From IMG/VR virus record IMGVR_UViG_3300045988_084518: a stretch of 39,269 nucleotides of DNA, one strand, 5' to 3'. A model generated the notes under the pieces. It was not told the origin of the DNA, did no database searches, and saw nothing but the letters and a program-made list of their open reading frames with translations. The stretch is from a virus. How positions within the stretch are numbered: position 1 is the first letter of the stretch; the number at the start of each line of letters is the position of its first letter. This document shows, in pieces, positions 187 to 39,179 of the stretch. Position numbers and translations under genes: made by a program.

Positions 187-3100
187 TTACCACACCTTCT
201 CTGACACTTCGAGTGCCTCGTACAAAAGGTGCTTTTGCTTTGTGCTTGCGCCTGGAACGGCCTTATCGATAGCGGCCTTCTTTTTGCGGCTGGAGGACAG
301 TTGGATTGTCTTCCCATCGCCGTCTTTGTCGCCTGTGATCCCACGGGCTGCGAAGTATGCGGCGTAGTATTGGTCGTAGGTAACGCCCTGTGCGACATAC
401 TCGGCTGCCTTTTCTCCGACATCCTTGTTGTATGTCTTTAGTGCGTACTCTGCACCGAACGCCTTGCGGTTTGCTTCGCGCTTAACAACATCGCTGTCTG
501 CACTTCCGATGCTCTTTGCGGTTTCCTCGTAGGTGCCAACGGTCAACAGGGCTTTTCTATAAATCTCGTTACGCAGCTCCAGCAGGTCACGAGCCTCGCT
601 CATCTTCTCCTTGCGGGTCTTTTCGCCGCTGTTGTAGATTTCCTTGAGCTGCTTCGTGATTTCGGATGCAGCCTTGCTCTGCTTATACAGGTAGGAGTAG
701 GTTGCATCATCGGCTGCTGTCGCAAACTCGGTCTCCTTTACCTGCTTGGCTTCGTCCAGCGCATCATAGAAGTCGCTGCCGAGCCGGTTCTGCCGGACGC
801 TATCAACGACAAACGCCTTTACCACCGCAGGGACATCAGCTTTCTTGGAAAGCGCCGGAAGCAACCAGTCGCCAATAAAGCCGGAATACTGGTCGATCAG
901 GTAATTGACCTTCTTCGGAGAAAGCCCTTCGATGCCGTTCTTCCCGTGTCGTGTAATCTCACCGAGCCAAATGGAGAACGCATCGGTGCTTTCATCGTAC
1001 TGCAGATAATCCGGTTTTTCCTCCATGTAACTGGATACGATGTCGCCGCCGTACCAGTTCTTGTTGGTCCTCATCGCATCAAACCCTGCAAAGATGTTAT
1101 TGGTCCGCGGGTTGTTCGGGGCAAGCTGTTCGATAGCGAAAGACGGATAACCGGCAAACGCGCTGCTTGCAGGTTCCCCTTTCAGCCAGCGCCACATCCG
1201 ATTGGTGAACGCCGTAATAACGGAAGGTTCACGGCCCATCGGAACCTTGATAAACTTATTGTCGCCGATTTTGATGAGGATGTTGCTGTCCTTGATGTAG
1301 TTGGAAAGCTCCTTGTAGTCATCGTCCTCTTTCAGCCCGTCATAAAGCAGACCCATAATGATACCGGGTGCCACGCCGTTGATAAGCAAGCGTGAGATCA
1401 GTTGTCCAATCTCTTTCCAGCCGCGCCGGTCAATGACATTGCGAATGTTCTTGGAAAGGCCCTGCATACCGGGGTTGAAGAAAGGCACAAGGGAAGCGTT
1501 CAGCTTGCGGGCAGCGAAGCCGCCACGCCCGAAGTTCGTTGTGATGTCTGCTGCATTATAGAGCGCCTGCTGCACATCGCCTGTGTCCTCCATCGTGCTG
1601 ATAAATTCAGCAAGTCGGGGGTACTGCTCGACCGCTTCATTGGCAAAGGAGAGGATGTCGATTACTCTATTCAACCCACCAGCCACTTTATCGACTGCAC
1701 CGTTTTTGAAATGGTAGCGGTCGGAAAGCCCCGACTTTGGGTCATAATAGGTAGTTCCTTTTCCGCCCATCGCCTGATAGAGCTGCCAATACTTCCCGTT
1801 CGTTGCGATTTCCTTTACGGCCTTGCCGTAGTTCTTAATGAATGTGGCATTGCTGTAATGGGTAAAGTACAATGCAGACTGTGCATCACGGACAAAATTT
1901 CGCACGATGAATACAGGGTTCCATTGCGTGACCAGCTTCTTGAATGTGCTGTTGATGGAGCGCAATGCTTTCATTCCAAAGGAATTGGATTGCTCAATGG
2001 GTCTAAACCCATCGGCCATTGCTTCACTCATGTGCAGAGTAACCGGTTTGCCATCCACCCAAATGCGCAGCGTGTTCTTGAGGTTCTCTGCGGAATCCGC
2101 ATCAAGGTCAACGAGATCGCCTTCCTCTGTAACACTCTGAATGTATTCCGAGATATCACGGGTAGTATCCATTGCATCTTCATACAGCATATTGCCCAGA
2201 ATGTTCTTTTTGGCTGCGGAGAAGGTCTGCAAGGTCTGCCTGGCAATACTGTCGATCAGCGGCATGATATCCTGGTTGCCACCTTTTGCGGACTTGATGG
2301 TGCTGTTCACCGCAACGATGTTGGGGTTGGAGTAGCCGCCGGAGGTGCTGGGCATATCGCGGTAGGTGGGAACATAGTGCGGATACAGTTCCTTCATGTA
2401 CTGTGCCATATCGGCGCTCACGAGTCCTCCCTGCTTTCGCACCTCCATCAATCCGTCAAGGTAGGCATACACATCCTTTGCCCACTTTTCAAATTCAGGG
2501 TGTGCATCCAGCAGGTCAGCTGCGGCGGCACGGCTATCGTCTGCGGTCACGCTGCTGCCGAACACAGGCTTGTCGAATTGCTTTTCAGCCCATGCCTGGA
2601 ACCGCTTATATTGCTTGGCGGCGGCAATCTGTGCCTCGGTGTAGGCTTTTGTAAGGGCAGTATCCTTGCCTGCGGCTGTGGAAATGTTCTCATCTGTCAT
2701 TTCCGCAAAGCCGTTGACTTCCCTGTTCAGTTTCGCCCGAAGTTCTGCAAGCTGCCGCTGCGCCTTTTCGCGTACACTCATGCGGTCTACATTGTGCTCG
2801 TGCAGCAGGTAGGTGTAAAACTCATCGGTCAAGCCAGCCTTTTTCGCCGGTTCAAATACCTGCATGAGGTTCTTATCGCCGATCTTCTTGCCGTTAAGGT
2901 CATACTGCCCTGCGCCGCCAATGGAATACTGCGCCGCCGCAGATGCCTGCCCGACATTGTTCGCTGCATACATGATTCTGCTGTCGCCGACTTCATTCCC
3001 GAATCGCTCCAGCTCATCCTTGGTATTGACTAACTGGCGCTTAATGGTGCGCCAGTCTTTGGCGACTTGCGCCTTAAAGGTTTCCTTGTCCTTCTTCGGC

Positions 3101-6100
3101 ATTTCGGTCAGAACCTTGGCAACATCTTCCGTAGTGGTGGATTTCTGTTCCGCCGTCCTCAATCTGGCTTTGCTCTTTGCCCGATCCTCCCGCACCACTC
3201 GGTCAATGCGGTCCTGCGTCCTCCGCCGGTTGAATTCGTCCTTTGCTTCGGACAGCTTTTCGTTGTACTTGTCCCGCATCTGCCGATTGTTCGCACGGAG
3301 GTCGGCACGGTATTGCTTGGCAAGTGCATCATATTTCGCCATGAATTCTGCACGGGCCTTTGCTGCCTTCTCTCGCTCTTTAGCCGCTGCTATTTCGGTG
3401 ATGAGTTTCGTCTCTGCATCACGCCAGCGGTCATTCATCTTCGCTTCCGCAGTTGCCTGCTGGCGATAGTCAGCAAGCTGCTGACGGATGTTCTTCACCT
3501 CGGCTTGTGCAGCCTTCAGCTCATCGTTTGCTTTCTCGGTTGCTTCGGAAACAACCCTGTCGATGTCGGCCATGTACTGGGCATCTTCCATGAGGGAGTA
3601 GCGGATGTCTTTGCTTTCTGTCGGAGCGGTATTGTCAATGTTCTTAAATTGACTACTGCCAAACGCCACATACACGTTGGCATTATCATATTTGCCCTCT
3701 ACAATGTATCCGTCATAACCAAGCGTGTTTCGAGCCGCTTCAAGAACGGTTCCGGAACCTGCTCCGCCGTTTGCAATCTCCGCAAGGATTTCGCTATCAC
3801 TATCGCTATATTCCATAGCTGCCTTTACGGTAGCATCCAGCGCACGGTTATACCATGCTTTTGAAGGGTACCCAATACCGCCGGCAGGGTCGTAATTCAC
3901 AAGCACTTCATCACCGGTCGGGTCAACAGCCTGTAAAAGTTTTTTTACTTCTGCCCTTGTCAGCGTAATCTCGCTATCGCTCAACGGCTTTTTGATATCA
4001 AGATACCCCTCAAGGAGTTGTCCGCCGTCCTTTTGGTAGCCCTCTGCCACCGGCTTGTAGTCAGTGAAATAGAAACCTTGCCCCTCGGAGCTGCCATGCT
4101 GGGACATGAAATCGGGGGAAAACTCGGTAAACACCGCCGGACTGCCATGATATACAGGTTTCAACCTGCCCTCTGCGTCAACGACTTTGGAGCCGAAGAA
4201 ATACTCCCGCTGCCCCGCAGAAAGCTCTCTGCCGGTGCTGTCGGTCGTCGGCATTTCCATAAGGGAAAGCTTTTCCTGTGCATTTTTTGCACCGGTTTGC
4301 ATAGAATGGGTATTGACAACATCAGTGTCTTGTGGTACATTGATGGTGTCGAAGTCAACCGCTGTGTTCCGCTCGGGCAATTGGAGCCCGATTCGATGAA
4401 GCAGCCGGTTGGCTTCTTTTTTGCTGTAGCCAAGCAAATTTCCCCGGAGCATTTGATCTGCAAGAAAGTCCCTGCTGTTTTCTTTTCCATACAGACTTGC
4501 CACTCTTGTTACAATATCAAAGCCATTGCTCCGGCTCAAGTGAAGCGCCACAACAACAGGGTTTCCATCGGAATCCGCTGTAGAGGTAACGATGACTGCT
4601 GCATTGGGGACAGTGCCCGATTTCAACAGAAGCACCGGCTTGTCCAGCATTTCCGGAAGTTTCAGCAAAACATTATCGGAAAGGCTGTGCCCATGGGTGT
4701 CAATCGTAGACTTCCTTTGGGCCTTTTCTACTACAGCCTGCATCATTACAATAGGCTCTTTCTTCATGCCGGCTGCCTGCAGATATTCCGATGTGTCATT
4801 GAGATAAAACAAGTCTCCACGCTTAAACCGGCCGGCTTTGTAGTCGGCAAACTGTTCCGCAAACGGGCGGTTGTTTTTCTCCACCGCCTCCTTCATCAGC
4901 GAATAAGATATCTTCCCCGCTTCTTCCGCCTCCGTTCTCCCCTCCATCCCATCAAGCAAAGCCTTCTGCGATTCGGACAGCCTGTTGTAGGCTTCCTGCG
5001 CAGAGGGCTTTCCTTTTAGCTTTTTGAGGATACGGTTCAAAAAACCTTTAATGCCGGTGGCCGCTTCCGTATTTCTTGCGCCTATGTACTCCAGCATATC
5101 CCGGCTGCCCAAAAGATCACCGCTGATATCGGCAGCGACTTCCTCCGCAGCTGCATCCGGGTCAAGCTCAATTCCATTGCGCTCGTACAGTTCGGTTTTG
5201 GCATTCATCATGCCCTTTACCATATCGGCATAGTCGGGGTTCTCTACCAGCGTATCAATCATCCCGGAATACTTGCTATCAGCTACAAGGTCGTGAAACA
5301 TCTCATGCCCGAAAGTAACCATCAGCGGATCGCGGGAATTGATGTTGACATAAATGGTGCCATCCGGTGCGCGATAGCCATTGGTCAGTCGGTACTGCCC
5401 ATTGACCTGCACCGCGCCCTCAAACCACACGATAGTCTTGCCAAGGTATTTCGCTGCATTGTTCACCTCGGCAACAGCTTTCTTTTTACTGCCGAGAATT
5501 TCAGCTTTCTTATAGCCGATCTCGGTATTGCCGCGCACATCGGTATTGGTGATCTCCTTGATACGGCGCTTGCCGTCTACATCGGTAATGGTGTTTTGCT
5601 CAACGGAAAGCCAGCGTTCACGGCTTTCCTGCTCAAGTACATCGGCTTCCGCTTCCGCTTTGGCTTCTAGTTCGGCAGTCGCCCTTTCTGCCGCTTCGGT
5701 CATGCGCTCCGTGTACTCCGCTTCGGATACGACCTGTCTGCCGGTCTCGCCCAGCTTCTTGGTCGTTACCTCGATGGCAGCAACATCCGCAGCAGGGTTT
5801 CCTGTGTACTCGATCCCTGCCAGCTTCGCAAAGGACTCTCTCGCAGCAGGGTCGTTGTAAACCTTCTGCGCTACGCTTTGGTTTGCAGGAGCGCCTTGAA
5901 TTGCGCTGTTGTAGGCGACTTCACCTGTATTGGCAGGATTATCTACCATCTGCACGAAAGCTTGCCCTACGCTATCCTGCGCTGTTTTAACAGCAGATTC
6001 CTCCTGCTTACTGAAAACCTCGGCCATAACCGATTCGGGAGTGGGTTTTACCCCCAATGTTTCCGCAGCTTGGACGATGGCGTTGGCGTTGTTCATCATC

Positions 6101-7560
6101 GCCTTCAGCTCTCGAATGGAAAGCTGTGTGATATCCCCTTGGATTTTGGAGAGGCCGCTTTCCGCATCGAAGGACTGGTTTGCTTCGAAAAGTCTGCCGA
6201 GCATCTGGGGGGTGGGCTTCTTCTGCGCTTCCGCTGCATAGATGGCAGGGGCTGTGCCTTCACCCTTGCCCAAGCCTTCCTCTATCTGCTGCTGGACTGC
6301 AGCGGGGGATTTCTTAAGGGTCTTGCCCAAGCGGTTATAGTTGACGGCTCGTGTCGCTGCGTTTGCACCGCCCAAAACACCGCCTGCGAGAGCGCCGAGG
6401 AGCATATCGTACCAGATGTTGTCCATCTCGTCACTTTCGCCCGTGAGCGCTTTCTCGATGGCATAGTTAACGACATCTTCGGCACCTTCCTCCAAGCCTT
6501 CCTCAAGGGGGACGCGCAGCAATTCGCCGCCGGTAGAAGTAGCCAATGCATAAATACCGGGGGCTTCGGACATCAGCTTTTTGGTTGCGGCTTGCCCCAG
6601 CTTTGTGCCGCCGAGTCTTCCGAACACACCGCCGATCTGCTCTGTGGTGTATGTTGCGGCTCCTGCGCCAAGACCGAGTGCAAATGCGAGATCGCCGTTG
6701 CCGTACTTCTCGTATGCGTCTGCATACTTGTGGCCGAGGGAGGATACCGACATCAGCAAAAGACCTGCCGCTGGTGATTTGGTAATTGCGGTCACAGCCG
6801 CAGGGATCGCCATGCCTGCAAGCGTTCCGGCAGTATCAAGGCCGAGACCTTCGAGAGTGCCTACACTCGCCCTGTCCTTTTCCCGCTTCAGCTCGGCAAC
6901 AGTCTTGTAATCTGTTATCGGCGCAGCGTCTTTCTTGACCACCCCGGAAGCCTCAAGCGCCTCCTTCGGGGAAACGCCCTTGTCCATAAGGTTCTTTGCG
7001 CTGGTTGCGGCTTGCCGATATGCCGCTTCGCCATCGCCCAGGTAGTGAGAGAGAACCCCTGCGCCCTGCATGAACGACTGGCCAAAGTCCTGCAACGAGG
7101 CCAATGTAGCAGTACCGGCCTTAAACTTGTTTTTGCTTGGGTCGTAGTCCTCGGTCGCTTCGATGTTCTTCTGTGTCTTATACTTGGTTTCCGCATTGAC
7201 GGAGTCGGTGTAGATACGGCTTGCAATGCCGAGCTGCTCTGCTTCCTCCTGCTTCATCCCGGCACGATGGTATGCCCCGGCCTTGATAAGGGCATCGTCA
7301 CGCTGCTTCTTCAGCGTATCGACATTCTGTTTCATGGTTTCGCTCTGCTTACGAGAAGAAGCCCCGGCAGGCGCAGCCTGTGCAGGCTGCGTGCCGGGAG
7401 AAAGAACAGTATGCTTAATCTCCTGCGAGCGGTATGGGGCCATTAAGTTTTCCATGTCGCTTGCGGAAACCTTTTTCGGGGAGCTGCCATCGCTGCGTGC
7501 GGTATTGTTGGAGTTTCCGTACATTAGGCCCTGCATTTCTTCGGCTGTTACCTTCCCCAT
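187..7560 (-). CDS. Giant (2457 aa) multi-domain virion-type 'polyvalent' protein: hydrophobic Gly/Ala segments + HExxH metallopeptidase + MuF-C-like segment + ART-like segment + coiled coil + ~1000-aa C-terminal region
   Basis: The ORF is uninterrupted over 7.4 kb. Start placed at ATG 7560 (AAGGAGG 5 nt upstream); the track start at 7644 has no SD. TFGHEMFHD is encoded at about nt 5290-5316. VYHGS...GQGFYFT...GYDGYIVEG...VAFGSSQFKN is encoded at about nt 3630-4160. A K/R/E-rich coiled coil is encoded at about nt 3050-3560. Confidence 0.7.
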   Translation of the reverse strand: MGKVTAEEMQGLMYGNSNNTARSDGSSPKKVSASDMENLMAPYRSQEIKHTVLSPGTQPAQAAPAGASSRKQSETMKQNVDTLKKQRDDALIKAGAYHRAGMKQEEAEQLGIASRIYTDSVNAETKYKTQKNIEATEDYDPSKNKFKAGTATLASLQDFGQSFMQGAGVLSHYLGDGEAAYRQAATSAKNLMDKGVSPKEALEASGVVKKDAAPITDYKTVAELKREKDRASVGTLEGLGLDTAGTLAGMAIPAAVTAITKSPAAGLLLMSVSSLGHKYADAYEKYGNGDLAFALGLGAGAATYTTEQIGGVFGRLGGTKLGQAATKKLMSEAPGIYALATSTGGELLRVPLEEGLEEGAEDVVNYAIEKALTGESDEMDNIWYDMLLGALAGGVLGGANAATRAVNYNRLGKTLKKSPAAVQQQIEEGLGKGEGTAPAIYAAEAQKKPTPQMLGRLFEANQSFDAESGLSKIQGDITQLSIRELKAMMNNANAIVQAAETLGVKPTPESVMAEVFSKQEESAVKTAQDSVGQAFVQMVDNPANTGEVAYNSAIQGAPANQSVAQKVYNDPAARESFAKLAGIEYTGNPAADVAAIEVTTKKLGETGRQVVSEAEYTERMTEAAERATAELEAKAEAEADVLEQESRERWLSVEQNTITDVDGKRRIKEITNTDVRGNTEIGYKKAEILGSKKKAVAEVNNAAKYLGKTIVWFEGAVQVNGQYRLTNGYRAPDGTIYVNINSRDPLMVTFGHEMFHDLVADSKYSGMIDTLVENPDYADMVKGMMNAKTELYERNGIELDPDAAAEEVAADISGDLLGSRDMLEYIGARNTEAATGIKGFLNRILKKLKGKPSAQEAYNRLSESQKALLDGMEGRTEAEEAGKISYSLMKEAVEKNNRPFAEQFADYKAGRFKRGDLFYLNDTSEYLQAAGMKKEPIVMMQAVVEKAQRKSTIDTHGHSLSDNVLLKLPEMLDKPVLLLKSGTVPNAAVIVTSTADSDGNPVVVALHLSRSNGFDIVTRVASLYGKENSRDFLADQMLRGNLLGYSKKEANRLLHRIGLQLPERNTAVDFDTINVPQDTDVVNTHSMQTGAKNAQEKLSLMEMPTTDSTGRELSAGQREYFFGSKVVDAEGRLKPVYHGSPAVFTEFSPDFMSQHGSSEGQGFYFTDYKPVAEGYQKDGGQLLEGYLDIKKPLSDSEITLTRAEVKKLLQAVDPTGDEVLVNYDPAGGIGYPSKAWYNRALDATVKAAMEYSDSDSEILAEIANGGAGSGTVLEAARNTLGYDGYIVEGKYDNANVYVAFGSSQFKNIDNTAPTESKDIRYSLMEDAQYMADIDRVVSEATEKANDELKAAQAEVKNIRQQLADYRQQATAEAKMNDRWRDAETKLITEIAAAKEREKAAKARAEFMAKYDALAKQYRADLRANNRQMRDKYNEKLSEAKDEFNRRRTQDRIDRVVREDRAKSKARLRTAEQKSTTTEDVAKVLTEMPKKDKETFKAQVAKDWRTIKRQLVNTKDELERFGNEVGDSRIMYAANNVGQASAAAQYSIGGAGQYDLNGKKIGDKNLMQVFEPAKKAGLTDEFYTYLLHEHNVDRMSVREKAQRQLAELRAKLNREVNGFAEMTDENISTAAGKDTALTKAYTEAQIAAAKQYKRFQAWAEKQFDKPVFGSSVTADDSRAAAADLLDAHPEFEKWAKDVYAYLDGLMEVRKQGGLVSADMAQYMKELYPHYVPTYRDMPSTSGGYSNPNIVAVNSTIKSAKGGNQDIMPLIDSIARQTLQTFSAAKKNILGNMLYEDAMDTTRDISEYIQSVTEEGDLVDLDADSAENLKNTLRIWVDGKPVTLHMSEAMADGFRPIEQSNSFGMKALRSINSTFKKLVTQWNPVFIVRNFVRDAQSALYFTHYSNATFIKNYGKAVKEIATNGKYWQLYQAMGGKGTTYYDPKSGLSDRYHFKNGAVDKVAGGLNRVIDILSFANEAVEQYPRLAEFISTMEDTGDVQQALYNAADITTNFGRGGFAARKLNASLVPFFNPGMQGLSKNIRNVIDRRGWKEIGQLISRLLINGVAPGIIMGLLYDGLKEDDDYKELSNYIKDSNILIKIGDNKFIKVPMGREPSVITAFTNRMWRWLKGEPASSAFAGYPSFAIEQLAPNNPRTNNIFAGFDAMRTNKNWYGGDIVSSYMEEKPDYLQYDESTDAFSIWLGEITRHGKNGIEGLSPKKVNYLIDQYSGFIGDWLLPALSKKADVPAVVKAFVVDSVRQNRLGSDFYDALDEAKQVKETEFATAADDATYSYLYKQSKAASEITKQLKEIYNSGEKTRKEKMSEARDLLELRNEIYRKALLTVGTYEETAKSIGSADSDVVKREANRKAFGAEYALKTYNKDVGEKAAEYVAQGVTYDQYYAAYFAARGITGDKDGDGKTIQLSSSRKKKAAIDKAVPGASTKQKHLLYEALEVSEKVW

Positions 7561-9916: not shown

Positions 9917-11209
9917 TTAGTTCACCCCCATAATGTTAAGAGCATTGAGCACATCTCGTGTATAGTTCGTGCCGTCAAGAGATTTCCAACCACCAGTAGC
10001 TGTGTCGTAATAATAAGCATTTACCGCTTCGGCAATACCAGCATCATTTCCTATAAACGCATTATTTATGGCAATGTTTATCTGTGCGCTTTTATCATTC
10101 ACAATATCGATACCCGGTCTTGCATCGGAATAATACAAAGCAAGTGTATTCTTGGGCAAATGGAAGTTAAGAGTTAGCTTATATACATTGCTTGAATTAC
10201 CATCACACCCAACAAAGATAAAGCCATCGTCAACAGCACACATCGGCATTGTATAAAAATAGTTTGTAAAACTTCCGATTTGGGATCTGACATCAAACAC
10301 ACTTGTATCAGTTTTTGTATCAAAATCGTAAGAATGTAAATAGCCATCGGATAGAAGATAATACATCTTTTTGTCAAACACAACGCCAGAAGTCGCACCT
10401 ATTGTTTTTCCAATACTGACCTGTGTTCTCATTCTTTCAATCGGGTCAACAATCGAAAACCAATTGTTTGCTGTTGAACCAGATACATTGCTTAAAGAAG
10501 TAGAACCGCCAAAGATATACATCTTATTATTTATGGCACCTTGTGCAGCAAACACCTGTCCGGTGAAACCGTTTATTTTCCCAACGTTTACCACGGTGTT
10601 TGCAACAGTATCTGTTTTGTACAAATCTCCATCGTCGATTGGCGATGAACAATCAGTGCGTACAGAGTATACGTCTGTTCCGATTACTATGGAAACGAAC
10701 GAACCTCTTCCAACAGTTCCGAGATTCTTTACAAGAGTTTCTGTATCAAGGTCATAGCATAAAGCAAAACTTTGATTGTACCACGTTCCAGACACGCCAC
10801 CATAAGAATATAACTTGTTACCAACAATACACATTCCACATTGTGGGTACACGCTGGTAAATGCCGATGGGTTAGTAACCTGTTTAGAATTTAAGTTTAT
10901 CTTAAACGCTTTTCCTGATGGATAATTGTCGGTGGTTGTGCTACTTGAACCACCAGAGAGATACAGCGTATTCGTGCTTTTCCTCCACGCAAGAAGCGCA
11001 CCAACATTTCCAGTAGACGGAACAGAAATATTGAGGTTTTCAAACTCAAAACCGTATGTTAGGTCTTTTGCGCTGCATATAACCCTATCCGGCTTCTTCG
11101 CCAGTGGAACCCACAGCTTACTTGTATCTGTCGGAGGGGTAGAGCCGAAGTCTATGTTCAAATCAGCTCCACCGCCACCCAACGTAATAGGATTTCCTAA
11201 AATACTCAT
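9917..11209 (-). CDS. Kelch-type beta-propeller fibre / receptor-binding candidate, paralog 2 (430 aa)
   Basis: Start moved to ATG 11209 (MSILGNPITLGGGG, parallel to the paralog's MSVIYGNPIITNGGG). Recurrent hhhhGG blades (LYLSGG, LYSYGG, MYIFGG). N- and C-termini are shared with 11234-12544. Confidence 0.65.
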   Translation of the reverse strand: MSILGNPITLGGGGADLNIDFGSTPPTDTSKLWVPLAKKPDRVICSAKDLTYGFEFENLNISVPSTGNVGALLAWRKSTNTLYLSGGSSSTTTDNYPSGKAFKINLNSKQVTNPSAFTSVYPQCGMCIVGNKLYSYGGVSGTWYNQSFALCYDLDTETLVKNLGTVGRGSFVSIVIGTDVYSVRTDCSSPIDDGDLYKTDTVANTVVNVGKINGFTGQVFAAQGAINNKMYIFGGSTSLSNVSGSTANNWFSIVDPIERMRTQVSIGKTIGATSGVVFDKKMYYLLSDGYLHSYDFDTKTDTSVFDVRSQIGSFTNYFYTMPMCAVDDGFIFVGCDGNSSNVYKLTLNFHLPKNTLALYYSDARPGIDIVNDKSAQINIAINNAFIGNDAGIAEAVNAYYYDTATGGWKSLDGTNYTRDVLNALNIMGVN

Positions 11210-11233
11210 ATTCACCCTTTCCGGGGTGAGTAT

Positions 11234-12544
11234 TTAGTTCACCCCTAATATATTTAGTGCGTTCTGCATATCCGCTACATAGCTTTCACCAGTAAGCGAT
11301 TTCCACTTAAGGTCTTTGCTGTCGTAGAGATATGCGTTTGTTAATTGTGCTATGTTGTTGTTGTCCCCAAGGTAGGCGTTGATCACCTTAACCTTAAAGT
11401 CAGTATCTTTGGATTTAAGTGCTGTCCACAAGCCATCGTAACCATAGTCCTCTTGCAGGAACAGGTGGTTGCTGGTGAGGGGAGTGCTGACCGTAAATCG
11501 GTCAATATCAAGGCTATCGCTAAAACCAATTGAACCAGTTAGAAAAATATTATACCCATATAGCCACGTAATACAATATTTTCCCGATTTTGGTCTAACA
11601 GCATCAAGAGTAATGACTTGCTTACTCACAGTATCATAGCGATAGATGGTATTAAACACTGTTCCAGAAACGTTTCTACCACCGAAGATGTAGATATACT
11701 GACCAAAAGCAACTGCATTTGTGTCATACATCACTTGAGGAAGCGTTCCATCGTGAGTCCATGAATTCGAGGTTATATCATAACGATAAATAGCATTACT
11801 CTTTGTGTTACTATAACTGCCCCAATAACCACCAACAACATAGATTGCATTGCCAATACTGCACACGCCAAAGTTAATCATTCCTTGTGGCATATCAGCA
11901 AACTTGCCTGTTTTGTTTTTGGATACGTCAAAATACCTTACATCAGGCCAACAATTACCAGAATTGGCGTATCCCATGGAATAAATTATTGTCCCGTGTC
12001 CGATGATAGTTTGACCTGAATTGGCACTGTTATCCCCAAAACTTACCGATTGATTATAGTGGTAAGCCCTACTTGCTATATCAAAATAACATAGAGAAAA
12101 CACTGAAGTGCCCTGCCCACGAGCGTGCCCCCAGTAGTAAATTTTGTTGTCAATAACCGCCGCACCCCTTGCAACCAAGGCGTTTATACTATAATTGTTC
12201 GTATCCCCTCCATCACATACAATAGGACAGGTAATCGTTTCCCAAGCATTAGTTGCAGTGTCGTAGATTTGCATTTTCGAGTCCGGCGCAGGCACATAGA
12301 TTTTACCACTGTGGTATACAGACGAAGGGCTTGTGATAGCAGGAGTTGAAGGTCTCGTTTGAACTGCGGTTGTCATATATTCGCTACCAATTTGCAAAAT
12401 CGGACTACACTCAACAGCATCAGGCTTTGTTGCCAATGGCACCCAGAGTTTGGTGGTATCAGCGGGAGGATTTGCACCATAGTCTATGTTGAGTTTTACC
12501 CCCCCCCCGTTGGTAATAATTGGGTTACCGTAAATTACGCTCAT
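11234..12544 (-). CDS. Kelch-type beta-propeller fibre / receptor-binding candidate, paralog 1 (436 aa)
   Basis: Blade motifs KIYYWGH, IYVVGGY and IYIFGGR. ATGA overlap with the collagen-like fibre gene. C-terminus NAYLYDSKDLKWKSLTGESYVADMQNALNILGVN matches the paralog. Confidence 0.65.
   Translation of the reverse strand: MSVIYGNPIITNGGGVKLNIDYGANPPADTTKLWVPLATKPDAVECSPILQIGSEYMTTAVQTRPSTPAITSPSSVYHSGKIYVPAPDSKMQIYDTATNAWETITCPIVCDGGDTNNYSINALVARGAAVIDNKIYYWGHARGQGTSVFSLCYFDIASRAYHYNQSVSFGDNSANSGQTIIGHGTIIYSMGYANSGNCWPDVRYFDVSKNKTGKFADMPQGMINFGVCSIGNAIYVVGGYWGSYSNTKSNAIYRYDITSNSWTHDGTLPQVMYDTNAVAFGQYIYIFGGRNVSGTVFNTIYRYDTVSKQVITLDAVRPKSGKYCITWLYGYNIFLTGSIGFSDSLDIDRFTVSTPLTSNHLFLQEDYGYDGLWTALKSKDTDFKVKVINAYLGDNNNIAQLTNAYLYDSKDLKWKSLTGESYVADMQNALNILGVN
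12499..12508 (-). repeat. G10 homopolymer (C10 on the + strand) in codons 13-16 of Kelch paralog 1
   Basis: Read directly: ...ACC AAC GGG GGG GGG GTA AAA... It is the longest homopolymer I found in the window. The paralog encodes the same GGGG with the interrupted codons GGT GGC GGT GGA. Confidence 0.9.
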
Positions 12545-14295
12545 GCTGTTACCTCCGTTATCGTAACCTGTACGGTCATGTCTGCGTTCGGCTTATCGCC
12601 AATGCATTTGGCCGTAATCGTTCCGTTGTTGTTCTCCATCCATATTGCAGATGTGCCGCTATCAATAAGCACGCCGATAGCGGTTGCATCCATTTGGATA
12701 TCTACCTTGCTGTTGGCGGTGATGCCGCTGATGGTAACCGTCTGCGAAAGGTTGCTCCAAGATGCAGTCGGCAAAGTGACCGAAGCTCGCTTGACCTTGC
12801 AAGCATTGATTGCCGTCTGCTGGGCGGTGGAAACAGGCTTGTTCATGTCCGATGTGTCATCGACACTCCCAAGACCCACCTGTGCCTTTGTAACTCCGTG
12901 AGGGTTGGATTTATCGGTCACATGGGTATACGGAGCCTGTTTTACATTATCCACATTGCCGAGGTCAACCTGCGCCTTGGTCACGCCGTGAGGGTTCGAC
13001 TTGTCCGCAATATGGGAAGGAACCGCAGCAAGGGACGAATTGAATGCCGTCTCCGTACCGCTGTACCCGCTTTCTACTGCGGTTTGGTATGCGGACTTGC
13101 CGTCTGCACCGGCAACACCAGCGGGGCCTTGCGGGCCTTCGGGGCCTACTACGCCCTGTGGCCCCTGAATGCCCTGCGGGCCTTGTGCGCCGTCTCTCCC
13201 TGCCGGGCCTGTCGCTCCTTCCTTCCCCTGCGGTCCCTGAATACCCTGCGGGCCTTGCGGACCGATGGGGCCTTGCAATGCGCCGACACTCACCCAATCG
13301 TTTGCGGTCTCGCTCCAGATGTAGCACTCGCCGTTCTCACGGACAAAGTACATCTTGGTATCTCCGTTCGGGATTGCATTCTTGAGAGCCGCTACGGTCG
13401 GATAGCTGTCCTCGATATACAGGCTGGTTCCGTCTTTCCCTGCGGGGCCTACGGGGCCTTGCGGCCCAACAGGCCCTTCAGGGCCCTGCACGCCCCTCGG
13501 CCCTTCCGCACCAGTAGCGCCGGGGTCGCCCTTCTCACCATTTGGGCCTTGGATGCCTTGTACGCCCTGCAAGCCCTGCGGGCCTCTTGCGCCCTGTGCG
13601 CCCTGTGCGCCCTGTATGCCTTGCGGACCCTGCGGGCCTCTCACGCTGACAGACTGCGGAGCAATTGCGGTGTCTTGGATGGTAAAGGACATGATGCCGT
13701 TTGCGTCCACGCTCGGTACGATGACAGGGCCAGTTGCGCCGATGTCGCCCTTGTCGCCTTTCTCGCCCTGTACGCCCTGCGGGCCCTGGTCGCCCTTGTC
13801 ACCCTTCAAACTGGTGATGATGGTCTGCGTGCCATCGTCAGATACAACACCGTTTGTGAATTTCATGCGGCTGCGCTGCGGAGCGATGGTGCCGTCAGGC
13901 TTAACGATGACATGGCCGGAGGAGCCGGTCGCTTCCCATACCACGCCATCTTCACTCGTCTCAAGCACCTTGTCACCGTTGAGCCGGATGTACTTCACAT
14001 TGCCGGTCAGGATCCGCTTTCCCAGCTCCTCCTGTACGGTCGATGCTGCGCCGCTGATGTCCTCTGCGCCCATGCTGGCGGCAGCGGTCAGGGCGTTGAG
14101 CGCATCCACAAGGCTGTTGTACGCAGGGATGACCACCTCACGCACAACAGCTTCTACCGAGTATTGCATCTCGCTGGCAGAAAGGTTCGGGGTGGTATCC
14201 TGACCGATTACACCGACTCTTTCCCCAGCGCTATCAGTAAATACCGCATCCTTGGTATACTCGTTCCCATCGGATGCTTTGATTTTCTCAAACAT
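12541..14295 (-). CDS. Collagen-like repeat tail fibre protein (584 aa)
   Basis: Three long Gly-X-Y runs (for example GPQGPQGIQGAQGAQGARGPQGLQGVQGIQGPNGEKGDPGATG). Duplicated DKSNPHGVTKAQV(D/G)LG(N/S)VD fibre-repeat motif near the C-terminus. Confidence 0.85.
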   Translation of the reverse strand: MFEKIKASDGNEYTKDAVFTDSAGERVGVIGQDTTPNLSASEMQYSVEAVVREVVIPAYNSLVDALNALTAAASMGAEDISGAASTVQEELGKRILTGNVKYIRLNGDKVLETSEDGVVWEATGSSGHVIVKPDGTIAPQRSRMKFTNGVVSDDGTQTIITSLKGDKGDQGPQGVQGEKGDKGDIGATGPVIVPSVDANGIMSFTIQDTAIAPQSVSVRGPQGPQGIQGAQGAQGARGPQGLQGVQGIQGPNGEKGDPGATGAEGPRGVQGPEGPVGPQGPVGPAGKDGTSLYIEDSYPTVAALKNAIPNGDTKMYFVRENGECYIWSETANDWVSVGALQGPIGPQGPQGIQGPQGKEGATGPAGRDGAQGPQGIQGPQGVVGPEGPQGPAGVAGADGKSAYQTAVESGYSGTETAFNSSLAAVPSHIADKSNPHGVTKAQVDLGNVDNVKQAPYTHVTDKSNPHGVTKAQVGLGSVDDTSDMNKPVSTAQQTAINACKVKRASVTLPTASWSNLSQTVTISGITANSKVDIQMDATAIGVLIDSGTSAIWMENNNGTITAKCIGDKPNADMTVQVTITEVTA

Positions 14296-29681: not shown

Positions 29682-30259
29682 GCGTTCTCCTCCATCATGC
29701 GCTGTGCTAGCCCTATGTCATAGCTGGGCAGCTGCTTCACCTGTGCTGCTCCCGTCAGCTTTTGGCGCACCTCTGCGGGCATTGCCAGCAGCTTCCGCTC
29801 GCTTTCCGCCCTTGCCCGGTAGGCCCGCAGGAAGTTGGACTGTACCACGCTCTGGACGGTGCCGGCATCCATCATCGCCCACTCACGGAGCTGTGACGGA
29901 TGGCCTACAAGTCGTTGCAGCGTCTCCGGCAATGCAGCAAATTCCTGCTCGCTGCCGTAGCCGCCGTTTCGCAGTGCCTTTGCAATCATCGCCCACGCTT
30001 CGCCTTCCGTCAGCTCGGCTGGCTTGCTGACCTCGCCGATGGATGCGATAATCGCCCCGATGTGCGGAGGGAATCCCTTGCGGTCGCTGGCAATGTGGGA
30101 CTTAACCGCCGCTGCCACAAGGTTAGCCGGGTAGTCTGCAAGCATCTCCGACCACAGGTTCACCACCGCTTCGGCATCCTGCCGTTTCATGTCCCTGTAG
30201 TAGCCGGGGTATGCAGCCTTCAAAATCGACATGATGGCAAGTGTTTCAGAACGGTTCAT
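29678..30259 (-). CDS. G39P-like replicative helicase loader/inhibitor (193 aa)
   Basis: Start at ATG 30259 (GGAGGAGGG). SILKAAYPGYY...VVNLWSEMLADYP...FPPHIGAII matches the SPP1 G39P-type pattern as I recall it. Confidence 0.5.
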   Translation of the reverse strand: MNRSETLAIMSILKAAYPGYYRDMKRQDAEAVVNLWSEMLADYPANLVAAAVKSHIASDRKGFPPHIGAIIASIGEVSKPAELTEGEAWAMIAKALRNGGYGSEQEFAALPETLQRLVGHPSQLREWAMMDAGTVQSVVQSNFLRAYRARAESERKLLAMPAEVRQKLTGAAQVKQLPSYDIGLAQRMMEENA

Positions 30260-30905
30260 GTTGTCCCTCCTCCTGCAGCATTTGCAAAAATACATTGTCT
30301 GTCCCGCCAGCAGACTTGTCGCCTTTCAACGGGTAAACATCCTGCCAGCAGCGCTTAACGCTCTGATCGAGAATAAGTCCCTTGGTGTGGTTGTCCCCCG
30401 GTGCCAGCCGTTCCAGCTCATTCAGGATCATCTTTGCGGCACGGTCAGTGAGGGGCTTTTTGATTTTCTTGCGCATCTCACAAAAGCCGTTCCAGTTCTC
30501 CATCAAGGCTTCCGGGACATCCACACGCCCCCTTGGGGGGGTAGGGGGGGTATTATTCCCAGAGGGAATATTTTCTTTGTCTTTGTCTTTGTCTTTGTCT
30601 TTGTCTTGGCTTTTCTGGGTTTTTGAAAAACCCGCTGGGTTTTTTGGGTTACCTTGGGTTTTCTTCGGCCTACCGCCCTTGGAACCGTTTTCCCTGCTTG
30701 TTTTGGCTCTTCCTTCGCATTCAGCAGCCATCCGGTCTATTTGCAACTTTGCTACCGGCCATATAAAACGCTCGTTTCCCCGGAAATCGGGGGCTGCGCC
30801 CGTCTCTGCATATTTCAGCATAGCCGTGAACAGCCGCCCTCTCTCCGCATCTCCGAGTTCCTCCATGGCATCTGCAAAGTCTGTAAAGACTTTAAGGTAC
30901 TTCAT
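30246..30905 (-). CDS. Replisome organiser / DnaD-like replication initiation protein (219 aa)
   Basis: N-terminus MKYLKVFTDFADAMEELGDAERGRLFTAMLKYAETG. A low-complexity basic linker contains (DK)5. Conserved C-terminal module. Position upstream of the loader. Confidence 0.5.
   Translation of the reverse strand: MKYLKVFTDFADAMEELGDAERGRLFTAMLKYAETGAAPDFRGNERFIWPVAKLQIDRMAAECEGRAKTSRENGSKGGRPKKTQGNPKNPAGFSKTQKSQDKDKDKDKDKENIPSGNNTPPTPPRGRVDVPEALMENWNGFCEMRKKIKKPLTDRAAKMILNELERLAPGDNHTKGLILDQSVKRCWQDVYPLKGDKSAGGTDNVFLQMLQEEGQHEPF
30526..30665. promoter_or_regulatory. Candidate origin of replication inside the organiser gene linker
   Basis: Two G7 runs (30535-41, 30544-50). IR ATTCCC-AGA-GGGAAT (30555-69). 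(CTTTGT)5.5 repeat. 17-nt palindrome GGGTTTTT-G-AAAAACCC (30617-33). TGGGTT iterons at 30616, 30636, 30645 and 30655. Confidence 0.45.
30575..30607. repeat. Hexanucleotide tandem repeat (CTTTGT) x5.5, encoding (DK)5 on the minus strand
   Basis: Read directly from the sequence. Confidence 0.9.
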
Positions 30906-38030: not shown

Positions 38031-39179
38031 ATGCTCTGTAAGAAGTGCAAAAAGGAATTACAGGATGATTGGCTCTACTGCCCTTGGTGCGGTTTGAACG
38101 CAAAAAAGCCGCCAAAGCAGACGATGTACCGCAGGAAGGACGGCCTGTACGAGAAGAAGGTCACGATAGACGGCAAAAGAATAGCGTTTCGTGCCAAAAC
38201 GGAAAGGGAAGTAATCCAGAAAATCGCTGCATATTCAGCTGATGCAAAAAGTGAAACAACAGCTCTGTTCAAGAAGTATGCGGAAGACTTGGAACGGTCT
38301 TGGGACGAGCTTGCATATAACACCCTGCGAAGCTATAAGCCTGCGCTGAAAAGATGTGTCGATTACTTCGGGGATATGCCTGTCGGGGACATCACGCCGT
38401 ATAGCATCTCCCTGTTCCTCTCCAAGATGGCCACCACCTATTCGCAGAAGACGATAAAAAACCACTTGAGCATGATTTCGCAGACGCTCGATCTCGCAGT
38501 CATGAATAATGAGATCGCCACAAACCCCGCATCCATCAAGTATAAGCCGACCGGGAAGAAGCCGGTCAAGCGCAAGGAGGCCGCCGAGCAGTACGCCGAA
38601 GTCATCAGACAATACTGGGGCGAAAGCCTGTACTCATGGCTGGCGTACTTCCTACTGAACACTGGTCTGCGAAAAGGCGAGGCGCTGGCTCTCCAGTACA
38701 GGGACATCGATATGGAGGAAAACATCATCTCCGTTTCCAAGAGTGTGTACTTCATCAGCGATAACCCTTACATCAAGGAGCCGAAGACCTCCGCCGGGAT
38801 ACGGCTGGTTATCCTCCCGCTGTGCGTGAAGGAAAAGCTGAAGCCAGGCAAGCCGAATGATTATATCTTCTCCACGGGTGGGAAACCACTGCACGAGCAT
38901 CAGATCGATGCCGGATGGGATAGGTTCTGCAAGGCTCACGACATGGGCGAATGGATAAAAGGTGCAGGAGGAAAAAACCGATTCAAACCGGCGGTCACCT
39001 TCCACCAGCTCCGGCACTACTACGCCACCAAAGGCTCGGAACTTGGCATACCACGAGAAGTCATGACAGAGCTGATGGGGCATTCCTCTTATATCGTTAC
39101 GGAAAACTACACACATATTCGAAAGGCTGCGCTGCAATCCGCTGCGGAAAAAATCAATGGCACAGAAATGGCACAGTGA
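38031..39179 (+). CDS. int: Tyrosine recombinase / phage integrase with an N-terminal zinc ribbon
   Basis: CKKC...CPWC at the N-terminus. SAM-like core-binding region. Catalytic pattern LRKGEALAL (R), HQLRHYYAT (HxxR), GHSS (H) and ENYTH (Y). Adjacent to attR. Confidence 0.92.
   Translation: MLCKKCKKELQDDWLYCPWCGLNAKKPPKQTMYRRKDGLYEKKVTIDGKRIAFRAKTEREVIQKIAAYSADAKSETTALFKKYAEDLERSWDELAYNTLRSYKPALKRCVDYFGDMPVGDITPYSISLFLSKMATTYSQKTIKNHLSMISQTLDLAVMNNEIATNPASIKYKPTGKKPVKRKEAAEQYAEVIRQYWGESLYSWLAYFLLNTGLRKGEALALQYRDIDMEENIISVSKSVYFISDNPYIKEPKTSAGIRLVILPLCVKEKLKPGKPNDYIFSTGGKPLHEHQIDAGWDRFCKAHDMGEWIKGAGGKNRFKPAVTFHQLRHYYATKGSELGIPREVMTELMGHSSYIVTENYTHIRKAALQSAAEKINGTEMAQ
39157..39176 (+). repeat. 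Tandem ATGGCACAG-AA-ATGGCACAG, 11-bp period: putative integrase arm-type sites (right arm)
   Basis: Same 9-mer pair as 131-150. It lies in the last codons of int, 39 bp from the att repeat. Confidence 0.5.

Follow-up and report, generated by a model that had tools for sequence, protein, structure and literature searches.

A variable poly-G tract that very probably switches a Kelch-repeat gene on and off in temperate phages of the human gut

Fletchervirus phages of Campylobacter reportedly carry receptor-binding protein genes regulated by poly-G tracts, as Sorensen et al. are said to have described in 2021. Other phages diversify their receptor-binding apparatus by different means: Mu and P1 carry invertible tail-fibre segments (Gin and Cin, respectively), and Bordetella phage BPP-1 carries a diversity-generating retroelement. 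Here we analyze a poly-G tract near the start of a Kelch-repeat gene, termed Kelch-1, in 39,269 nucleotides of viral DNA (IMG/VR virus record IMGVR_UViG_3300045988_084518; this whole stretch is called the window below). Because the tract measures 7 to 20 G among otherwise near-identical phage genomes, we conclude that it very probably turns Kelch-1 on and off by replication slippage. The locus belongs to a known class, that of poly-G receptor-binding genes and phage contingency loci, and temperate phages of the human gut are a new setting for it.

The Fletchervirus poly-G case is cited in PMC10877375 and PMC12823448, the latter of which also cites phage tropism switches based on inversion or retroelements as alternatives. 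Campylobacter phages provide the only experimentally established poly-G phase variation in phage receptor-binding genes that we found in the literature, and this is the only case that a 2025 Nature paper on gut phage dynamics names as possibly determining host range. In T2, T4 and other phages, frameshifts that arise reversibly at short homopolymers have been proposed to serve bet-hedging (Gomez, Barrick and Waters 2025, bioRxiv 10.1101/2025.10.21.683753). In that study, phage contingency repeats measure 6 nt or more (9 bases at the agt locus), mutant read frequencies are ~1e-4 to 1e-3, and such repeats are under-represented in coliphage tail-fibre genes (0.77x).

As in Fletchervirus, the tract analyzed here is a G homopolymer inside the reading frame of a (putative) phage receptor-binding gene whose translation would be on or off depending on tract length, and each phage encodes more than one (putative) receptor-binding protein, so that phenotypically mixed populations could arise. 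Fletchervirus phages belong to a different lineage: they are virulent myoviruses, and their Gram-negative host has many poly-G loci of its own. The window, by contrast, is a temperate phage of ~39 kb (with a tyrosine integrase and a P22-type portal) from human gut metagenomes, probably with a Bacillota host. Also unlike Fletchervirus, it has a single tract per genome, located in a Kelch propeller protein and paired with a tract-free paralog, and the evidence is comparative here and experimental there. Compared with the T2/T4 loci, the G tract is much longer and lies in a fibre-like gene, and entire assemblies are dominated by one length or another. With Mu Gin/P1 Cin and BPP-1 the locus would have in common that the receptor-binding apparatus is diversified stochastically among the phages of one population; the means differ, since Mu and P1 use site-specific inversion and BPP-1 uses mutagenic retrohoming. 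A scan of part of the open reading frames (ORFs) of the window showed no invertase or reverse transcriptase.

Kelch-1 is encoded on the minus strand at 11234-12544 (436 aa) and begins MSVIYGNPIITNGGGVKLN. On the + strand the tract reads ...ttttaCCCCCCCCCCgttgg..., with C at 12499-12508; on the coding strand these ten consecutive G start 36 nt past the A of the ATG and fill three GGG codons (13-15) and supply the initial G of codon 16, GTA. The sequence-only reading, made before any comparison, had placed a G10 at codons 13-16 of this 436-codon ORF and called it the longest homopolymer of the window, and both statements hold: all other runs are at most 7 nt, and the next C run is 6 nt. An order-1 Markov model predicts ~0.07 G/C runs of 10 or more in the window, and C-run counts drop so steeply (C4 68, C5 18, C6 2) that the implied expectation for a run of 10 is far below 0.07. 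GGG makes up only 17.8% of Gly codons across 15 window genes; at that usage, three in succession (P~0.005) with a codon starting in G behind them would not be expected. The Kelch-1 ATG (12542..12544, minus strand) shares bases with the TGA that ends the upstream collagen-like gene (ATGA), and a Shine-Dalgarno (SD) sequence read from the sequence, GGAGG (12552..12556, minus strand), lies 7 nt upstream of it and is conserved in the flanks of relatives. The start and the first 12 codons (MS[VI]IYGNPI[IV]T[NS]) are kept in all relatives.

Changing the tract length in silico has a simple outcome. A simulated G9 gives MSVIYGNPIITNGGG followed immediately by TAA, a 15-aa product, and simulated G8 and G11 give 27 and 28 aa, in agreement with the earlier proposal that a slip of one nucleotide in either direction would truncate the protein early. 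Thus, G9 and G12 lead directly into the TAA, while G8 and G11 reach a stop 12 codons further on. Simulated G7 and G13 stay in frame and encode 435 and 437 aa, one Gly fewer or more. With lengths of 7, 10 and 13 in frame and lengths of 8, 9, 11 and 12 stopping early, Kelch-1 is therefore translationally ON or OFF. In the G9 frame of the window sequence, read by hand, the stretch from the nearest upstream stop to the tract contains no start codon. We considered a second designed ON state that would use an out-of-frame ATG arising from a TAT-GGN codon pair, and rejected it for lack of an SD. Gene callers start the MVIQLLP... products of G8/G11 genomes at this ATG, which is present in 9 of 17 G8/G11 contigs and in 30 of 66 contigs overall, so it is not enriched, and it is missing from the window, which has TAC at this position. 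The out-of-frame ATG and TTG codons behind the gene-caller products MVIQLLP... or MPTGG... likewise have no SD and show no enrichment in G8/G11 genomes, and we do not regard them as a second ON state.

The sequence-only reading had proposed comparing tract length among related prophages. An exact-flank scan (CCAATTATTACCAAC, variable gap, TAAAACTCAACATAGA) yielded 10 IMG/VR loci and 12 ENA human-gut assembly loci; with the window included, the gap was 7 nt in one locus, 8 in five, 9 in eight, 10 in five and 11 in four. A protein-pattern scan added 72 further viral loci, confirmed by tblastn, and removal of duplicates by contig left 66 distinct contigs with the MS[VI]IYGNPI[IV]T[NS] start. These carry G7 (5 contigs), G8 (10), G9 (27), G10 (14), G11 (8), G13 (1) and G20 (1); L034, counted as G10, reads as an uninterrupted G13. 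Relative to the conserved SD-served ATG, 22 of the 66 are ON and 44, or two thirds, are OFF, with a mode of G9. Bayliss et al. (2012, PMC3401435) report for poly-G/C tracts of Campylobacter jejuni a mode of nine flanked by eight and ten, which they put down to insertions being favored at G8 and deletions at G11. The Kelch-1 distribution (mode G9, flanks G8/G10) agrees with the C. jejuni equilibrium, and the locus resembles the C. jejuni contingency loci in its lengths of 7-11, its mode of nine, the position of the tract early in the ORF, frameshift-based ON/OFF states and the preservation of the ORF in OFF alleles. The C. jejuni loci differ in being bacterial surface or restriction-modification genes, where here the tract lies in a virus genome and in a putative virion protein.

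Variation in length also occurs within narrow groups. A single allele group (the 441-codon allele) with divergence of at most 1.5% holds G7, G8, G9, G10 and G11, and ON and OFF states therefore appear to switch into one another at a much higher rate than the gene diverges. At 90% identity, the protein cluster around the window allele contains a 436-aa form (G10), a 435-aa form (NGGVKLN, corresponding to G7) and gene-caller truncations of 387 and 346 aa; one cluster member, L103 (run ERR2737499), is 96% identical to the window and has G9 in its DNA. The tract also persists in alleles whose proteins are only ~35-45% identical and in phage backbones that differ in gene context, and a second N-terminal family (MSTIIGN..T[IL]GGGG[AT]K) carries a GGA-G7/G8 tract of its own, in frame in some members and out of frame in others. 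Interrupted tracts (GGTG7, T-G9 and GC-G11) are found in 6 of 66 contigs, and five of the six are in frame, compared with 17 of 60 pure tracts (Fisher p=0.014), which hints at occasional selection for a stabilized ON state. The sequence-only reading would have been contradicted by close relatives with interrupted Gly codons and no variation; what we find in relatives is these few, mostly in-frame interruptions among tracts of many lengths.

Some contigs show unusual features at the tract. An extreme expansion, G20, lies at about 2,495-2,514 of L047 (IMGVR_UViG_3300045988_094654), out of frame, and the 440-codon ORF that follows it is intact. The ends of three contigs fall inside the tract (L029/L030 and L096, at position 1), and one circular contig (L027/L093, IMGVR_UViG_3300045988_107676) is broken about 30 nt from it. 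Contig breaks at the tract are expected from read heterogeneity within a sample, and a drop in coverage at a G run would have the same effect.

A comparison of indels between the window and its relatives was uninformative (divergence 70-93%), and we instead used near-identical pairs of contigs. L006 and L022 align over 12,966 bp with 0 mismatches and carry G10 and G9; L010 and L013 align over 5,784 bp with 0 mismatches (G9 and G8); L008 and L013 over 2,299 bp with 0 mismatches (G7 and G8); and L008 and L010 over 3,647 bp with 1 mismatch (G7 and G9). Across these four pairs there is 1 substitution in 24.7 kb in total, and the tract differs in 4 of 4. In such pairs, with 0-1 mismatches over 2.3-13 kb, the tract is the sole indel between the two genomes. 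A more distant pair, L009 and L017, has 22 mismatches over 4,805 bp and carries G11 and G9.

We next asked whether the gene remains intact in OFF genomes. OFF contigs with a full Kelch gene keep 410-441 codons open after the tract, with one exception (L005, 321 codons); a few other loci have only the 5′ module in common and are fused to a different, shorter body. Median ratios of nonsynonymous to synonymous substitution rates (dN/dS, Nei-Gojobori) for the downstream ORF are 0.21 between OFF contigs (n=30), 0.19 between ON contigs and 0.18 for mixed pairs. Judged by these ratios, OFF genomes are under purifying selection and are not decaying pseudogenes. Given an OFF dN/dS like that of ON genomes and mixed states within one allele group, selection on the protein therefore seems to persist through OFF phases. 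In comparative terms, this OFF-phase selection together with fast ON/OFF interconversion is the defining signature of a contingency locus. The slipped-strand ON/OFF switch proposed from the sequence is thus supported by the spread of tract lengths, two thirds of them out of frame, by the tract being the sole indel between near-identical genomes and by the OFF ORF being both open and under purifying selection.

The second Kelch gene provides an internal contrast. Kelch-2 lies directly after Kelch-1 at 9917..11209 on the minus strand, with a conserved start MSILGNPITLGGGGAD and its ATG at 11207-11209 (the longest ORF extends to a GTG at 11215). Its Gly run is GGT GGC GGT GGA (11168..11179, minus strand), a non-slippery counterpart of the tract. 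The mixed codons noted in the sequence-only reading prove to be general: 67 of 67 Kelch-2 starts use mixed GGT/GGC/GGA Gly codons, with a longest G run of 2 nt within the four Gly codons, and among these 67 all Kelch-2 copies recovered whole are in frame.

Kelch-1 has the Kelch repeats first assigned to it from the sequence (Pfam Kelch_1, E=3e-20). An AlphaFold2 model is mostly beta strand, with a mean predicted local distance difference test (pLDDT) score of 82 and with residues 1-17, including the Gly run, disordered; in a fold search, the best PDB matches of this model are Kelch beta-propeller domains. In the protein, the Kelch propeller is variable and lies between two conserved modules, one of ~50 aa on the N-terminal side and one of ~80 aa on the C-terminal side. 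An alignment of both paralogs with about 200 database homologs (alignment A1) shows the same conserved ends flanking a highly variable propeller, which suggests that propellers are swapped as cassettes through recombination at the conserved ends. The two Kelch genes are positioned between the collagen-like tail fibre gene and the lysis genes, and Kelch-1 has a weak match to a PHROG 'virion structural protein' family. From gene position, modular architecture and the nearness of a baseplate gene to the cassette in another prophage type (L106 and L107, see below), we infer that the Kelch proteins are fibres or receptor-binding proteins.

Several points weigh against a switch, and we consider them here together with the explanations that they favor. 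Tract lengths were read from assembled contigs, and among homopolymers it is long G runs that Illumina instruments misread most often. If all tracts were truly in frame and G8, G9 and G11 were homopolymer miscalls, one would also account for contig breaks at the tract, and several contigs have coverage of only 3-4x. Some of the near-identical pairs may be one sample assembled twice; the difference within such a pair would then mean heterogeneity within the sample, or noise, and not divergence between samples. An artefact would, however, mean that the consensus is wrong for 44 of the 66 assemblies, with some errors of -2 or -3 nt, and that it is wrong even at 666x (ERZ1034925, G9) and 360x (ERZ1034992, G8); the modal length, G9, is not an in-frame one. 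Independent assemblies also agree: two from run ERR1190658 are 100% identical over 21.3 kb and both read G10, as does a third (ENA ERZ28595485) that encodes an identical 2,457-aa protein, and G8 is reproduced in two independent sources (L106, from a metagenome-assembled genome (MAG) at NCBI, and L107, from an unrelated Logan run). Two control repeats in the same contigs never vary in length. A C7-TA-C7 repeat (G7-TA-G7 on the + strand; encoding TPPTPP) at 30535-30550 on the minus strand, within a DUF6291 gene (30246-30905), was compared in 29 copies, one from the window and 28 from viral contigs: 28 of these are 7+7, and the 29th has a substitution that leaves its length unchanged; several of these contigs are those with a Kelch tract of G7, G9, G10 or G11. 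An A10/T10 run followed by TAAAACAAAC, missing from the window, is 10 nt in all five contigs that hold it (L002, L005, L006, L014 and L022; e.g. L005 1449-1458). These controls are not matched to G8-G11 in both base and length. Overall, we consider it very improbable that the variation is an artefact of sequencing or assembly.

The tract could also vary in earnest and still not be a switch. The ON fraction, 22 of 66, is exactly the 1/3 expected without frame selection (binomial p=1.0), which is the main argument for a neutral hotspot, that is, a chance run in the Gly-rich linker of a dispensable gene whose OFF alleles are plain loss-of-function; OFF phages attain very high coverage, and the second paralog could cover the function. 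From this fraction, length across samples therefore seems to be set by mutational dynamics and not by constant frame selection, and mutation-governed length also suits an accessory, conditionally useful protein. A neutral hotspot is very unlikely given that OFF contigs with the full gene keep the ORF (bar L005) at a dN/dS of ~0.2 equal to that of ON contigs, that the tract is retained in alleles at ~35-45% identity, in differing phage backbones and, with other flanking codons, in the second N-terminal family, that Kelch-2 avoids any G run in 67 of 67 cases, and that codon usage makes three consecutive GGG improbable (P~0.005). Alternatively, tract length could set the amount of Kelch-1 through recoding, with slippage by RNA polymerase or -1/+1 slippage by the ribosome (tRNA-Gly on GGG) partly restoring the frame. 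Transcriptional slippage on long homopolymers is established for bacterial polymerases, and the commonest state, G9 (27 of 66), has a stop directly behind a perfectly slippery run; read from the sequence, a -1 shift would restore the G9 frame and a +1 shift would restore G8 and G11. The abundant phage populations at 666x and 360x are, moreover, nominally OFF. Programmed sites nevertheless keep a fixed slippery motif, whereas the length here varies from 7 to 20; the 181 nt around the tract show no stimulatory RNA structure (minimum free energy z-score -0.11); synonymous and third-codon positions downstream vary normally; the product common to both frames is only 15 aa, leaving a two-product design without rationale; and interrupted tracts are preferentially in frame, suggesting that the DNA frame matters. 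We therefore view recoding as unlikely. A programmed ribosomal frameshift site was rejected, since the tract has neither a fixed, conserved length nor a downstream stimulatory structure, the two defining features that were tested. A further caution concerns what the switch would control: virion location and receptor binding of the Kelch proteins are themselves deduced from sequence, and the fold search with Kelch-1 returned Kelch domains, with no solved phage receptor-binding protein among the matches.

Our preferred reading, which we consider likely, is that the tract is a hypermutable contingency locus at which slippage toggles Kelch-1 translation, that an always-on Kelch-2 shares putative docking modules with Kelch-1, and that mixed virions result. 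Slipped-strand mispairing at poly-G is an established mechanism. During DNA replication, mispairing would add or delete G's at the tract, and this could occur during phage replication or while the prophage is copied with its host. Genomes with G7, G10 or G13 would produce full-length Kelch-1 from the SD-served ATG, differing by one Gly in a disordered N-terminal tail. Kelch-1 shares its N-terminal (~50 aa) and C-terminal (~80 aa) modules with the always-on Kelch-2 and differs from it in the central beta-propeller. The most likely outcome would be a mixed virion population with Kelch-2 on all particles and Kelch-1 also, or instead, on a variable minority, which would amount to a bet-hedging change of receptor specificity. 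While the length polymorphism, its effect on the reading frame, the intact ORF of OFF genomes and the contrast with Kelch-2 were each observed directly, we infer slippage itself, its reversibility within a lineage, incorporation into virions and an effect on host range.

Out-of-frame tracts also affect annotation. OFF alleles receive artificial N-termini from gene callers (MVIQLLPAGGGVKLN, MPTGGVKLN and MLSPLEGGGAKLN) or truncated starts. Mis-started entries in protein databases include P0029, P0039, P0041, P0058, P0060, P0067, P0071, P0073, P0078, P0100, P0103 and P0107, and further such entries are P0003, P0105, P0108, P0116 and P0120. Frame-shifted or truncated N-termini of this kind are numerous in the protein databases, as expected for a tract of varying length, and public protein sets systematically mis-annotate the Kelch-1 family.

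The ~39 kb of the window make up the complete genome of a temperate phage, sampled in human gut metagenome run ERR1190658; the second assembly of this run, a Logan contig, is circularly permuted relative to the window. The gene order on the minus strand is terminase, P22-type portal, major head protein, a 634-aa virion protein, collagen-like tail fibre, Kelch-1 and Kelch-2, followed by four small ORFs, an Amidase_3 endolysin, a 255-aa protein and a 2,457-aa polyvalent protein. The collagen-like tail-fibre gene (12541..14295, minus strand, 584 aa), whose stop overlaps the Kelch-1 start, matches Pfam Collagen and PHROG tail protein and tail fibre families. The polyvalent protein (187-7560, minus strand) contains MuF_C, ART-PolyVal and LPD38 domains, and adjoins the tyrosine integrase (38031-39179) across the circular junction.

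Host flanks were sought using the integrase, the 2,457-aa protein and the Kelch protein, and all contigs returned were phage-sized (20-50 kb). Longer contigs with the prophage, of 116-187 kb, include ERZ827520.159 and ERZ28576540 scaffold_38. The exact-flank scan found 0 matches in a genome contig collection, and the protein-pattern scan of genome contigs found 4 loci, three in Bacillota MAG bins and one in a contig labelled Helicobacter pylori. The MAG bins weakly indicate a Bacillota host. The fourth locus, L095 (NZ_JAHXLB010000019.1, 'Helicobacter pylori strain SHZY19 contig_19'), is a 23.6-kb contig that carries the cassette with an interrupted in-frame tract (GGTG7), and is probably contamination of the H. 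pylori assembly rather than a Helicobacter prophage. A megablast search of 50,697 phage records returned only unannotated human faecal fragments and spurious collagen-repeat matches to mycobacteriophages.

L106 (NCBI GCA_963597885.1, CAVBQQ010000012.1) and L107 (Logan SRR34699380) carry the same Kelch cassette, 5′ module included, with a tract of G8. In both, a P2 gpI-like baseplate gene precedes the cassette by a few genes, and an Amidase_2 lysin is encoded close by. From these gene neighborhoods, the Kelch cassette appears to be common to podovirus-like and contractile-tail prophages. More tentatively, and with somewhat less than even confidence, we suggest that a portable 'anchor plus switch' cassette exists, made up of the SD, the MSVIYGNPIITN codons, the poly-G tract and the VKLNIDYG..KLWVPL codons, with interchangeable Kelch propellers.

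In a fibre-like gene, our analysis reveals a long G tract that is polymorphic among independent human-gut assemblies, of which there are dozens, and the adjacent paralog avoids such a tract systematically. If a portable cassette exists, it would have been transferred between unrelated temperate phages of human-gut Bacillota with podovirus-like and contractile-tail backbones, and many gut phages would have one constitutive and one stochastically switched receptor-binding protein. This would represent family-wide bet-hedging against variable host surface glycans, with the switch OFF (mode G9) in most natural populations. If the Kelch-1 switch is confirmed, slippage of a single nucleotide could create host-range heterogeneity in abundant temperate phages of the gut, and phage-host arms races could be tracked in vivo through metagenomic read pile-ups at a single defined site.

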